A stretch of DNA of 64,000 bases, from assembly GCF_003334385.1 (NCBI RefSeq), contig NZ_QOWN01000004.1. One strand, given 5' to 3'. This document shows, piece after piece, positions 26,991 to 35,725 of the stretch. The stretch comes from Escherichia coli. GTDB lineage: Bacteria; Pseudomonadota; Gammaproteobacteria; Enterobacterales; Enterobacteriaceae. The position numbers and the translations under genes were made by a program. Every line of letters starts with the position of its first letter. Position 1 is the first letter of the stretch. The notes under the pieces are model-generated. The model searched no databases. It saw only the letters and a list, made by a program, of their open reading frames with translations, and had not been told where the DNA came from.

Positions 26991-28508
26991 TTATTTCTGT
27001 GGGCGCATCGCCGGGAAGAGAATAACGTCGCGAATAGTATGGCTGTTAGTAAACAGCATAATCATTCGGTCGATACCAATACCCAGACCAGCGGTTGGCG
27101 GCAGACCATATTCCAGCGCAGTCACGTAATCTTCGTCATAGAACATGGCTTCGTCGTCACCTGCAGCTTTAGCATTAACCTGTTCCTGGAAACGTTCAGC
27201 CTGATCTTCTGCGTCGTTTAATTCGCTAAAACCATTACCGATTTCACGACCACCGATGAAGAATTCAAAACGGTCGGTGATTTCCGGGTTAACATCATTA
27301 CGGCGTGCCAGCGGGGACACTTCTGCCGGATATTCCGTAATAAAGGTTGGCTGAATCAGATGTGCTTCTGCCACTTCATCAAAGATCTCTGTGACAATAC
27401 GTCCCAACCCCCAGCTTTTCTCTACCGTAATACCGATAGATTCAGCTAATGCTTTAGCAGCATCAAAATTATCCAGGTCGGCCATATCGGTTTCTGGACG
27501 ATATTTTTTGATTGCTTCGCGCATGGTGAGTTTTTCAAACGGTTTGCCGAAATCAAACACATGCTCGCCATAAGTGACTTTAGTGGTACCCAGAACCTCT
27601 TGTGCCAGGGTGCGGAACAGTGACTCTGTCAGTTCAATCAAATCGTGGTAATCCGCATACGCCATGTAGAGTTCCATCATTGTGAACTCAGGATTATGGC
27701 GAACAGAAATACCTTCATTACGGAAGTTACGGTTGATTTCGAATACCCGTTCAAAACCGCCTACAACCAGACGTTTCAGATACAGCTCCGGCGCGATACG
27801 CAGATACATATCTAAATCCAGAGCATTATGATGGGTAATAAACGGGCGAGCAGATGCCCCACCTGGAATTACCTGCATCATCGGGGTTTCTACTTCCATA
27901 AAGCCGCGCGCGACCATGAATTGACGGATAGCGGCCAGAATTTTTGAACGGACAACAAACGTTTGACGGGATTTATCGTTAGCGATGAGGTCCAGATAAC
28001 GTTGACGATAACGGACTTCCTGATCCTGCAGACCATGGAATTTATCTGGTAAAGGACGTAGTGCTTTAGTCAGCAGGCGCAGCTCAGTACAGTGAATGGA
28101 AAGCTCACCCGTTTGCGTCTTAAACAGCGTACCGCGGGCACCGATAATGTCACCCAGATCCCATTTTTTAAACTGATCGTTATAAACACCTTCTGGCAGG
28201 CTATCTCTTGCAACGTACAGTTGAATACGGCCACCGACATCCTGCAACGTTACAAAGGAGGCTTTCCCCATGATACGACGGGTCATCATTCGGCCAGCAA
28301 CCGAGACTTCAATGTTTAAGGATTCCAGTTCCTGGTTATCCTTCGCATCAAACTCTTCGTGCAACTGGTCAGAGGTATGGTCGCGGCGAAAATCATTGGG
28401 AAACGCCACACCTTGCTGACGTAGTGCCGCCAGTTTTTCGCGGCGATTTCTCAGTTCATCGTTAAAATCAATAGCCTCATTGGCTCCCCGTGTTTCTTGT
28501 TCAGACAT
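26991..28508 (-). CDS. lysU: Lysyl-tRNA synthetase, inducible isoform LysU, 505 aa
   Basis: ORF 26991..28535 trimmed to internal ATG ([19 protein letters not shown]...); class II aaRS motifs. Confidence 0.93.
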
Positions 28509-28744
28509 TTTGGTTCCTCTAAATCCAGCTTTCAATTTAGCGTAGATAAAGAGACAGATCGGTACACTGTATTATCTGCCTCGACTATTAGTAACTCAGT
28601 TTATCTTATCGAAACTAACGCTTACCTCAAGTTGATATCACTAATAAATAACCATCAAAATGGTTTAAATGACTTATTAATCTCGATTTGTTAGTGTTAT
28701 AAACTGAAAGTTAATTTATTCATAACCAATTGTTTTTACGACAG

Positions 28745-30202
28745 TTAATCGTTGCTCTCCTGTATCATATTCGTCGGCGTGCTAAACAGAAAACGGGTAG
28801 CAAAGGCCAATACGACGATGATCGCGACACAAGCCAACGTCCACTCTCCCATCTGAGAAAAGAATCGCTGGTAAGCTGCAATTGCCATACCGCTAATTTG
28901 CGACTCTGTCGTCTGCTGTGCCACGACGCCTGCCAGCCAGTTGGCGACCGCGCCTGTTGCCAGCATATAAATCCCGGTTAATACGCCAGACATTTTCAGA
29001 CGCGTGATTTGCGCAATCGCCACCGGGTCAATAAAGAGTTCGGCAAAGCCCATTAGCGCCAGCCCGGATATCATCACGCCCATTGACGCTTGACCGTCAG
29101 CCGCTGCATGTCGGGCATCAAATGCCAACAACATAAAGCCACAAGCCATCAGCAGTAAGCCAAAGGCAAACTTCAGCCAGACGCGCAATGTTGAGTTGCC
29201 GCGGCTTTCTGGCGACGCCAGCCAGGCCAGTACAACCCCAGCGAGCATCACCGCAATTGCATTCACCGACTGGAATAGTGCTGTAGGTACTTCAATATTG
29301 AATGCCTGACGATTCACAAAGCGATCGATAAACAAGCTGATGGTACTGCCGCCCTGTTGTGCCAGTACCCAGAACAATGTCCCGACAAACATCAACAATA
29401 CAATTTGCCAAAGAGCACGGCGATGTTCGGGGAATTTGATCATCATGCGGGCAATGATTTGTGCGGCAATGAGGCAAACGATCGCCAGCAAATATCCGGA
29501 CCAGTCGTTCTCCAGCAGCAGAGTAAAAAATACTGGGGCTAAACAGAGCATCACCACTAACCAGCTCCATACTGGTAAGGCAAATTTGACACTAGTGAGC
29601 GCTTTTTTATCCATACTACGTGTGGACTGGAAATGACGATGACCGCTTAAGAAAATCAACAAACCGATAAACATGCCGCCACCCGCAAGGGCAAAGCCAA
29701 CATGCCATCCATACCACTGAGCAGCCAGGCCGCAGGCGATTGGGGCTGCGATAGAACCGATATTGCCCGCAGCATACAGCAGCGAAAAACCGCCATCACG
29801 TCGATGATCGTTCTCGTCGTAGAGCTCGCCAAGCAAACAGCTGATGTTTGATTTGAATAAACCGTAGCCACAAATAATGATTGCCAGCGCCAGATACAGG
29901 CTAAAGGTTGAATTTGTATCAATACCCAGCACCACATGGCCAAGGGTCATTAACAGCGCGCCGGCAATCACTGCAGTGCGGTTGCCGAGCAGGCGGTCGG
30001 CAAGCCAGCCGCCGAGAATAGGGGTAACGTAAACCAGAGAAGCATATGCGCTGAACAGGCTGATGGCATGGTTATCATCAAAACCAAGCTGATGGGTGAG
30101 ATAGAGAATGAGTAAGGCACGCATGCCGTAAAAACTGAAGTACTCCCAGATTTGGATCGCCACGATATAGTATATCGCGCGCGGCTGTGAGGGTGTTTTC
30201 AT
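28745..30202 (-). CDS. dtpC: Dipeptide/tripeptide:H+ permease DtpC (YjdL), 485 aa
   Basis: Full-length ORF; POT/PTR2 transporter sequence. Confidence 0.9.
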
Positions 30203-33822: not shown

Positions 33823-34186
33823 GCTCTTCTCCTAATTTCATTTTTGAATTTGGAGTCCGGGTCATGATGTATAACTATTTCCTGACCAGACCAAACTGGC
33901 GATAAGATTACTCACGAAAAAAGGATTAATCCTAAAGATTAGGTGAAATAACACAAAAGTTTCTGTAAGTGAGAACTTGAGGTTTTTTATTAACACATCA
34001 GGATCGCAAGTTGATATCATGAAAAGATAAACATTTAATGTTTACAATGGATTGCGTGACATTCTCTGGTTAAATTTATGTAATAAAAATTATGCGGCAA
34101 ATAAATTGCCGCAACATATTATACCAACAGGAACATACAAAAACTCAACAACAAATATTTCCGAGCATAAATCAACCCGGAGTTAC
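33823..34186 (-). promoter_or_regulatory. AT-rich cadBA promoter region
   Basis: 364-bp AT-rich intergenic tract between cadC stop and cadB start; CadC sites not resolved. Confidence 0.5.
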
Positions 34187-35725
34187 TTATTCTGAAGCAA
34201 GAAATTTGTCGAGATAAGGTACAACATAAGGAACAGAAGTCTGGAATATACCATTTTCAATCCAGTAAAGGGTGTTTGCCCCTGGGCGTAAATTAAAGGC
34301 GGTGAGATATGCATCAGCTGCTTCCCGGCTCATCCCCTTCATTTCATAAACCTTGCCAAGCAACACATAATTTAGCCAGGACATTTCAAGATCAATGCCA
34401 GTATTTATCGCCTGGTAAGACTCATCTGTTTTACCTTTTACCAGAGCACTGACCGCTTTTATTTGATATATAATGGACAGGTTGTTCAATTCCGGCAGTG
34501 TAACAATGTTATCTATTTCTGTGTTCAGTGCTGCTAATTGTTTTTCATCTAAAGGATGTTGAGAATGGCGCACGATATCAACTAATGCTTTTTCTGCTCT
34601 CGCGTAGGTAAATTCTGGGGATGATTGAACAATCTCACCTAATAATTCACTGGCACGGTTCAATGATTTATCATCGCCATGCAGTAAATAATCATGTGCC
34701 TGATAAAAATTAGTTAATAACGCACCACGATGCGGCAAAATTTTCTGGAGCGTCTCCTGCATTCGTTGTGGCCACGGTTGGTTTAACGCTTTTGATAAAC
34801 TCTCCAGTAAATCATTTTGAATCGCCAGCTGATTACCGTTAGTGATGACATAACGTTTATCCAGCATGGTTGAACCATCTGCATTGTCTACCAATTTTAT
34901 CGACATAAAGCATTGTTGAGCACGGTATTGGCGCTGATTAACAAACGCAATAGATAATGTTTTACCGGAACTGCTCGGTTCATCAATGTTGTAGTTGATT
35001 TTGTCATGCACCATAAAGGTGGAGAAGGTGTTAAGTGATGTCGCCACCAAATCACCCACGCCTATCGCGTAAGAGAGCTGATACGGGGAACTCCAGCTGT
35101 TACAACTTTTATTTACCATATTAATGTCAATATCGCGTGGATTGAGCAAAATACGCGATTTGCTCATAGGAAGACGTGTATCAAGACTTGAAAACGCTAC
35201 CAGTGCTACACAGATACCTAACGACAACAGGAAAAAAAACCATACCCAAAAGGTAGTGAATCGTTTGCTTTTAACTGGGGATTGTTCAGGTGGCGTTGCG
35301 GTGTTTTGAATGTTAAGACTGTGGGAGGGAGAATCTGTGGCAGGAACCGCCTCTGGTATAGGGGGAGGCGAAGATAGCATTATTTCCTCTCCCTCTTCTT
35401 CGCTGTACCAGATAACCGGCACCATTAATTTATAGCCGCGCTTTGGTACAGTAGCGATATAGACAGGACTATCTTCATCATTATCTTTTAATGACTTACG
35501 TAGTTCTGAGATACTCTGCGTCACAACGTGATTGGTGACAATACTTCTCTTCCAGACATTATCGATAAGTTCATCCCTGCTAAGTACTTCGCCACTGTGT
35601 TGAGCAAAGAAAACCAGAAGATCGATTAATCTCGGCTCAAGGGTAAGTTGACGCCCATTGCGGCTAATTTGGTTTATGGACGGAGTAACAAGCCATTCGC
35701 CAACGCGAACTACAGGTTGTTGCAT
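34187..35725 (-). CDS. cadC: ToxR-like membrane-bound activator CadC, 512 aa
   Basis: N-terminal winged helix, single TM, periplasmic sensor domain. Confidence 0.93.
   Translation of the reverse strand: MQQPVVRVGEWLVTPSINQISRNGRQLTLEPRLIDLLVFFAQHSGEVLSRDELIDNVWKRSIVTNHVVTQSISELRKSLKDNDEDSPVYIATVPKRGYKLMVPVIWYSEEEGEEIMLSSPPPIPEAVPATDSPSHSLNIQNTATPPEQSPVKSKRFTTFWVWFFFLLSLGICVALVAFSSLDTRLPMSKSRILLNPRDIDINMVNKSCNSWSSPYQLSYAIGVGDLVATSLNTFSTFMVHDKINYNIDEPSSSGKTLSIAFVNQRQYRAQQCFMSIKLVDNADGSTMLDKRYVITNGNQLAIQNDLLESLSKALNQPWPQRMQETLQKILPHRGALLTNFYQAHDYLLHGDDKSLNRASELLGEIVQSSPEFTYARAEKALVDIVRHSQHPLDEKQLAALNTEIDNIVTLPELNNLSIIYQIKAVSALVKGKTDESYQAINTGIDLEMSWLNYVLLGKVYEMKGMSREAADAYLTAFNLRPGANTLYWIENGIFQTSVPYVVPYLDKFLASE

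Follow-up and report, generated by a model that had tools for sequence, protein, structure and literature searches.

Conserved placement of the dipeptide permease gene dtpC behind the cadCBA lysine decarboxylase genes of Enterobacterales, across a structurally conserved terminator

The minus-strand block at positions 26991-35725 of a 64,000-nucleotide stretch of the Escherichia coli contig NZ_QOWN01000004.1 (this whole stretch is referred to as the window) carries the genes of the acid-inducible lysine decarboxylase (Cad) system, cadC, cadB and cadA, followed by the peptide permease gene dtpC (also named yjdL) and the lysyl-tRNA synthetase (LysRS) gene lysU. Across Enterobacterales, the four genes cadC-cadB-cadA-dtpC form an invariant module, which occupies at least five chromosomal neighbourhoods, and a structurally conserved terminator separates cadA from dtpC. 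The linkage to lysU appears as a later addition, limited to some lineages. The segment is the cadC-cadBA-dtpC-lysU region of E. coli K-12, and its explanation as a whole by this module, together with a probable transcriptional read-through into dtpC, is considered likely. In a comparison with complete E. coli genomes, positions 26500-36500 are 100% identical to K-12 MG1655, and the RefSeq annotation mapped to the window gives the following order on the minus strand, together with the scores of the proteins against their curated families.

34187..35725, minus strand: cadC, membrane-integrated ToxR-like activator of cadBA (NF007540, 750 bits against a cut-off of 400; WP_001187173.1)
32488..33822, minus strand: cadB, lysine/cadaverine antiporter (NF007754, 920 bits against a cut-off of 585; annotation)
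30261..32408, minus strand: cadA, inducible lysine decarboxylase (NF011929, 1627 bits against a cut-off of 1056)
28745..30202, minus strand: dtpC (yjdL), atypical proton-coupled dipeptide permease (TIGR00924, 268 bits against a cut-off of 130; WP_000856829.1)
26991..28508, minus strand: lysU, inducible lysyl-tRNA synthetase (NF009101, 1203 bits against a cut-off of 1026; labelled lysS by the Prokaryotic Genome Annotation Pipeline, PGAP)

Thus, the description in the initial annotation of cadCBA, a peptide permease and lysU on one strand in a block of about 9 kb is borne out by the identity to MG1655, the annotation and the family scores. The block runs from the start codon of cadC (first base at 35725) to the stop codon of lysU (final base at 26991), with cadB and cadA in tandem downstream of cadC on the same strand according to the list of open reading frames (ORFs), the family scores and the annotation. 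CadC, as an activator type with a winged-helix DNA-binding domain at the N-terminus and a periplasmic domain, matches the NF007540 equivalog over its full length, and all five proteins exceed the curated cut-offs of their own families, with the sole exception of DtpC on a mis-named NCBIfam 'DtpD' subfamily model (613 against a cut-off of 623), DtpC passing the model TIGR00924 of the proton-coupled oligopeptide transporter (POT) family. The mechanical ORFs of cadA and lysU are longer than the annotated genes, extending to 32447 and to a TTG at 28535, respectively; since the NCBIfam alignments begin at ORF residues 14 (cadA) and 10 (lysU), the annotated starts are supported.

The conservation of this arrangement was followed in a scan of species-representative genomes with CadA, which gave 79 loci that were taken with 10-kb flanks and on which the five E. 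coli proteins were placed by tblastn. In about 47 species representatives, belonging to Enterobacteriaceae, Serratia, Hafnia, Edwardsiella and Izhakiella, cadA is immediately followed by dtpC, and the adjacency is present in Escherichia, Klebsiella, Raoultella, Trabulsiella, Pluralibacter, Buttiauxella, Yokenella, Pseudescherichia, Phytobacter, Kluyvera, Salmonella, Superficieibacter, Shimwellia, Serratia, Izhakiella, Hafnia, Edwardsiella and Enterobacillus. Every cadC-cadB-cadA locus with a CadC of at least 49% identity has dtpC after cadA, except for L017, L036 and L050, and two further cadC-cadB-cadA loci end at a contig edge, where the position of dtpC is cut off. In the same tblastn survey, dtpC was not found at the cadBA loci of Vibrio, Aeromonas and Plesiomonas.

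The association is equally strict when the search starts from the permease. In a protein search, a clean gap separates the DtpC clade (at least 64% identity) from the DtpD clade (at most 61%, 493 amino acids). Five out of five further DtpC-clade genes, from Pantoea, Enterobacter cloacae and three others, stand directly after cadC-cadB-cadA, and the two DtpD-clade genes that were examined sit at the unrelated ybgI-phr locus. Altogether, 52 of the 52 DtpC-clade genes sampled across Enterobacterales are linked to cad. Many of the cad-linked DtpC-clade proteins carry the source name 'dipeptide permease DtpD' (e.g., P0014, P0017, P0040, P0076 and P0087); because of these names and of the 613/623 score of the E. 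coli protein, it is the gene context that separates the two clades, and the database names fail to do so. The initial annotation had regarded conservation of the linkage beyond E. coli as the point on which coincidence should be judged, and in this respect its proposal stands for cadCBA-dtpC, with 52 of 52 genes, but only in a subset of genera for lysU. A LysRS gene behind dtpC is restricted to Escherichia, Klebsiella, Raoultella, Buttiauxella, Pseudescherichia and one Enterobacter.

Some loci depart from the usual layout. In Klebsiella indica (L017:12146-13154), dtpC has been deleted, the terminator and an AAGGAG remnant are kept, and some 490 nt lie between cadA and the LysRS gene, the linkage between cad and LysRS thereby persisting without dtpC. 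In Pseudescherichia, the LysRS gene begins only about 27 nt after dtpC. In a 5.5-Mb assembly (L091:1620-10328), cadC, cadB, cadA and the LysRS gene are broken into many short ORFs and dtpC is intact, which could reflect pseudogenisation or assembly errors.

Outside Escherichia, the flanks of the block have nothing in common with those of E. coli, and the flanking contexts differ by lineage (pheU/ghoST, glnB-glrR, accA/ldcC...tilS, mlrA and others). The genes glnB-glrR lie behind the block in Salmonella, Kluyvera, Pluralibacter, Superficieibacter and Enterobacter cloacae, tilS follows it on the same strand in Serratia, Hafnia, Edwardsiella, Shimwellia and Enterobacillus, and mlrA is found upstream of it in one genome. 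The persistence of the same four-gene order in at least five neighbourhoods therefore argues against coincidence. In Serratia, exemplified by Serratia proteamaculans (L025:1-13600; also L024, L026-L028 and L087), the order is dnaE-accA-ldcC-orf-cadC-cadB-cadA-dtpC-tilS, and the same site in E. coli (L082) reads dnaE-accA-ldcC-yaeR-tilS, with ldcC only. From this it would seem that cadA and ldcC originated side by side at the accA-tilS site, the cad module of E. coli having moved at a later time. One other genome carries the order accA-yaeR-cadCBA-dtpC-tilS. The product of tilS is also a lysine-using enzyme.

These differences in position bear on a second explanation, namely that the block of E. 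coli is an island acquired horizontally at the pheU tRNA gene, which would account for the linkage and which is considered improbable. In the window, immediately upstream of cadC lie a decayed fragment of an integrase gene at about 35985-36144, annotated as incomplete and frameshifted, and a tRNA-Phe gene at 36342-36417 that has a strong terminator hairpin at 36307-36332. The integrase fragment may, however, come from an unrelated island at this tRNA gene, which is a frequent integration site. The composition is divided: cadC (42% G+C) and the AT-rich flanking spacers contrast with cadB, cadA, dtpC and lysU, which at 47-51% are near the average (49.9% for the window). In other genera the block has other neighbours, with tRNA-Phe adjoining it only in Escherichia; a search for tRNA-Phe beside the block in other genera, made as a test of the island, found the tRNA gene only in E. 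coli among the loci checked. At the level of the species, some match to the 10-kb stretch occurs in all 5426 complete E. coli genomes and the block is intact and in one piece in 5191 of them, which speaks against an island; about 190 E. coli records (e.g., NZ_CM194533.1) match only through the paralogues lysS and ldcC, so that the block is taken to be missing in them, as an island would allow. Such absences would agree with the loss of cad that is known from enteroinvasive lineages. Relocation accounts for the present position of the block and not for the four genes staying together everywhere.

The second line of evidence for the module lies in the junction between cadA and dtpC, which contains the following features.

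30220..30249, minus strand: intrinsic terminator after cadA, with an 11-bp G+C-rich stem and a 4-nt loop followed by TTTTTT (terminator scan)
30208..30213, minus strand: strong Shine-Dalgarno sequence of dtpC, AAGGAG
30200..30202, minus strand: ATG start codon of dtpC

The spacer measures 58 bp in E. coli, where 21 nt separate the hairpin from the ATG. Nearly every species in which dtpC adjoins cadA has a hairpin with a T-run behind it; the stem sequences differ and the tight spacing is kept across families. Folding of the spacer alignment gives 11 pairs, 8 of which show compensatory double changes. In several species, this spacer is enlarged by palindromic, REP-like insertions of 80-150 bp (L012, L014, L015, L019 and L033), and in Pseudescherichia (L018, L020 and L040) a REP-like element stands in place of the terminator hairpin.

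How dtpC is transcribed across this terminator can be approached through published expression data, taken from Tables S3 and S5 of a 2023 ribosome-profiling study (PMC10746267) as mean RNA reads per kilobase per million (rpkm), with ribosome footprints added for dtpC.

cadA RNA: 2322 rpkm at pH 4.4, 535 at pH 5.8 and 3.3 at pH 7.6
cadB RNA: 1469 rpkm at pH 4.4, 311 at pH 5.8 and 3.6 at pH 7.6
dtpC RNA: 79 rpkm at pH 4.4, 11 at pH 5.8 and 4.8 at pH 7.6
dtpC ribosome footprints: 132 at pH 4.4, 9.3 at pH 5.8 and 5.9 at pH 7.6

According to these tables, severe acid induces dtpC about 16-fold, and dtpC RNA amounts to 3.4% of that of cadA at pH 4.4 and to 2.1% at pH 5.8. A microarray study of an acid shift gave comparable log2 changes for yjdL (+2.6), cadA (+3.2) and cadB (+3.1) (PMC2270276). 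Thus, dtpC is probably transcribed mainly by read-through of a few per cent at the cadA terminator, over a weak basal transcription, so that its product would be co-induced with CadA at a level roughly 30-50-fold lower. Judged from the dtpC/cadA mRNA ratio alone, the efficiency of the terminator would be about 97%.

The same values can be read in another way, in which dtpC forms an independent unit with its own acid-inducible promoter, located in the 3' end of cadA or overlapping the terminator, and the hairpin fully terminates the cadBA transcript. This arrangement, which is somewhat unlikely, would account for the shift of the dtpC/cadA ratio between pH 5.8 and pH 4.4 and for the level of dtpC mRNA at pH 7.6 in the tables, which is not below that of cadA (4.8 against 3.3 rpkm); both features imply some transcription independent of the cadBA promoter. 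The architecture of the junction offers little room for it, since space for a promoter upstream of dtpC is lacking in the 21 nt between hairpin and ATG, and the tight spacing across families points in the same direction. Further upstream, from 30203 to about 30600, a consensus scan of the minus strand gave no sigma-70-like site, and in 46 species the final 70 codons of cadA show no increase in synonymous constraint (values of 0.51-0.63, the mean over the gene being 0.57). A conserved dtpC promoter within the 3' end of cadA was rejected for lack of both a synonymous-site signal and a consensus-scan site.

With read-through as the preferred reading of dtpC expression, the question arises of what the permease contributes to the module. 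By its family score DtpC belongs to the POT/PTR2 family, in which it forms an atypical subgroup with DtpD, and its homologues carry the domains PF00854 and PF07690. DtpC is described as preferring dipeptides, especially those with C-terminal Lys, with best uptake at pH 6.5, and the side chain of the lysine is proposed to be bound by residue D392 (PMC3478282, PMC9309889). Residues Y21 and D392, together with other binding-site residues, are invariant in 47 of 47 cad-linked orthologues. The use of D392 and Y21 as a signature of cad-linked permeases was ruled out, since they are shared by the DtpD clade, which lacks the cad link. On the basis of the described preference, DtpC may well import dipeptides with C-terminal lysine (X-Lys) that, once cleaved, feed CadA and the charging of lysyl-tRNA. 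The two papers on DtpC, PMC3478282 and PMC9309889, contain no mention of cad, decarboxylase or operon. In the full-text literature, with subscription journals and EcoCyc outside the scope, a link between dtpC/yjdL and Cad was not found beyond co-listing in a microarray table and in a paper on mouse colonisation; such a link may be stated elsewhere.

More tentatively, these elements can be combined into the proposal that dtpC is an unrecognised fourth component of the Cad module in every lineage of the DtpC clade, expressed at a few per cent of the cadA level through a conserved and leaky cadA terminator and supplying X-Lys, and that the cad-linked LysRS, and perhaps in other lineages the adjacent tilS, reflect selection for the protection of lysine-dependent translation against the draining of lysine by CadA. 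Several observations weigh against the preferred explanation or parts of it. The variable dtpC/cadA ratio (2.1% at pH 5.8 and 3.4% at pH 4.4) and the dtpC transcript at pH 7.6 have been given above, and the acid co-induction of dtpC could come from a separate acid-responsive promoter. The affinities of DtpC are millimolar (PMC9309889), and 8 proteins of the DtpD clade, whose genes are unlinked to cad, show D392 and Y21 with the same invariance. As regards the synthetase, most genera with cadCBA-dtpC are without the lysU linkage, and outside Escherichia the LysRS linked to cad shows 88-92% identity to LysU and LysS alike.

In the extreme, the adjacency of dtpC and lysU to cad would be historical synteny without functional coupling, and the patchy linkage of lysU and the specificity residues common to the unlinked DtpD can be cited for it, as can the absence of a mouse colonisation defect in single, double and triple permease mutants that include dtpC (PMC10936423). 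It is nevertheless quite improbable that synteny alone is at work. All 52 sampled DtpC-clade genes stand directly after cadA, in a block that recurs in at least five neighbourhoods; the spacer between the two genes retains its architecture through compensatory changes; dtpC is co-induced by acid; and the substrates fit, given the X-Lys preference of DtpC and the tolerance of LysU to cadaverine.

This last property belongs to the part of the block that is not shared by all lineages. The sequence between dtpC and lysU is as follows.

28509..28744, minus strand: AT-rich dtpC-lysU spacer (30.9% G+C), predicted location of the presumed Lrp-repressed lysU promoter

The terminator scan found no terminator-like site in the spacer 28509-28744. 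LysU is a class II LysRS with 88.7% identity to the product of the prfB-linked lysS gene of the same genome. Its gene is strongly repressed by Lrp (PMC5320599) and is up-regulated at low pH according to work cited in PMC5078493, where LysU is also cited as less inhibited by cadaverine than LysS (Brevet 1995). The connection drawn in the initial annotation between lysine decarboxylation and a second LysRS isoform hence has a published rationale in the cadaverine tolerance of LysU, as cited in PMC5078493. For Klebsiella, Raoultella, Buttiauxella and Pseudescherichia, an attempt to assign the LysRS linked to cad to one of the two isoforms gave, at the positions that differ between LysU and LysS of E. 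coli, 220 cells matching LysU and 258 matching LysS. Because of this equal similarity to LysU and LysS, the relation of these genes to lysU is positional only.

The regulatory region of the module, the spacer between cadC and cadB at 33823-34186, has 33.2% G+C, as compared with 49.9% for the window, and falls at the 0.7th percentile among all 364-bp windows; the equivalent spacers of other genera have 30-41% G+C in an alignment of 18 genera. Four elements were placed in it.

34093..34113, minus strand: terminator-like hairpin and T-run after cadC (8 pairs, then TAATTTTTAT, in the scan; a hairpin at the same position in other genera)
34007..34047, minus strand: Cad1, a CadC-binding site of 41 nt (exact and unique match to the 41-mer of PMC5430869), containing at 34028-34044 the quasi-palindromic 17-mer TAAACATTAAATGTTTA (sequence from PMC5430869)
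33959..33989, minus strand: approximate Cad2 region (-89 to -59), placed by the Cad1 numbering of PMC5430869, with inferred boundaries
33900..33937, minus strand: putative core cadBA promoter, with CTTTAGGA at 33930-33937 assigned as -35 and TAATCT at 33905-33910 as -10

The 18-genus alignment shows the Cad1 core GTTTATCTTTT..TGA to be kept throughout and a block AAAAA..TCAA...CAtTT to be conserved in the Cad2 region, and the core promoter is the most conserved block of the spacer (CTTTAGGA as -35, TAA.T as -10). As the 17-mer corresponds to -144 to -128 in the numbering of PMC5430869, the start of cadBA transcription is calculated to lie near 33900. The CadC consensus TTA-N4-T is too degenerate for a meaningful motif count and, for this reason, the exact published Cad1 sequence was used. 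CadC is stated to displace H-NS from the AT-rich promoters of cadBA and cadC (PMC5430869), and the discussion in PMC5430869 also gives occupancy by H-NS and derepression in an hns mutant. The AT-richness upstream of cadB and its fit with silencing by a nucleoid protein, both put forward from the sequence, are supported by the composition and by this published displacement, respectively, and the motif search for CadC sites between 33823 and 34186 that had been suggested gave the exact Cad1 match. The reading of the spacer as AT-rich and silenced by H-NS is correct and already published.

At the other end of the block, lysU is convergent with the type V toxin-antitoxin pair ghoS-ghoT (26375-26872), with the following structure between the two.

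26946..26979, no strand assigned: perfect 15-bp hairpin between the convergent lysU and ghoT, read from the sequence, without a clear T-run and of unproven function

This hairpin is not reported by the terminator scan. An Rfam scan of 25000-38000 gave tRNA-Phe as its sole match, and riboswitch or small RNA families were not found in this interval.

Taken together, the following course of events can be proposed. On the established side, as others have demonstrated, CadC binds Cad1 and Cad2 in the AT-rich, H-NS-silenced spacer and turns on cadBA at low pH in the presence of lysine, whereupon CadB exchanges lysine for cadaverine and CadA decarboxylates lysine with the consumption of one proton. 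Read-through of a few per cent at the cadA terminator would then yield a low, co-induced amount of DtpC, which may bring in X-Lys dipeptides whose cleavage could supply lysine when free lysine is drained. Finally, from its own Lrp-repressed promoter, lysU would supply a LysRS more tolerant to cadaverine than LysS, this step again being one described by others.

The five genes of the locus, the CadC sites, the silencing of the cadBA promoter by H-NS and the repression of lysU by Lrp are all already described, and the one element that may be new is the standing of dtpC as a constant part of the cad module whose expression would be attenuated by the terminator. This hypothesis is modest and easily tested. 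The comparative result provides a physiological context for DtpC, a transporter well studied in structure and biochemistry, whose X-Lys preference has no stated rationale in PMC3478282 and PMC9309889. If the hypothesis is true, the Cad system can draw on peptide-bound lysine, a slight extension of models of Cad that consider only free lysine. Free lysine outside the cell is sensed by CadC through LysP. Moreover, the conserved terminator between the gene of a very abundant enzyme and that of a membrane protein would provide a natural example of an expression ratio set by partial termination.

Among known systems, the closest is the Cad system of E. coli itself (cadC and cadBA, with regulation by CadC, LysP and H-NS), which is the same locus, identical to that of K-12, with Cad1 present and an AT-rich promoter; the literature found on it treats cadC and cadBA as the system and leaves dtpC uncounted, and a single paper among those found names both cadBA and yjdL. 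Likewise, the permease is identical to the atypical POT DtpC/YjdL, for which dipeptides ending in Lys or Arg are described as the preferred substrates, together with a role of D392, the invariant cad linkage and the terminator architecture being added by the present analysis. LysU corresponds to the K-12 gene, repressed by Lrp and induced by heat and low pH. The Adi system (adiC, adiY and adiA), found in the same window at 9485-14312, some 13 kb away from the cad block on its lysU side, likewise combines an acid-inducible decarboxylase with an antiporter and a dedicated activator, and AdiA and AdiC are paralogues of CadA and CadB; however, it has neither a linked peptide permease nor an aminoacyl-tRNA synthetase. 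A likeness in the latter respect is offered by tyrS-tdcA-tyrP of Enterococcus, where a second, acid-induced synthetase gene adjoins a decarboxylase and an antiporter for the same amino acid (PMC3315439), although this system is Gram-positive, consists of unrelated proteins and has a T-box leader in front of tyrS, whereas lysU is under Lrp control and has no T-box. Lastly, the ldcC locus of E. coli (dnaE-accA-ldcC-yaeR-tilS) encodes LdcC, the constitutive paralogue of CadA, and it is at this site, between accA/ldcC and tilS, that Serratia, Hafnia and Edwardsiella carry cadCBA-dtpC, whereas in E. coli the cad genes lie at pheU with lysU attached.

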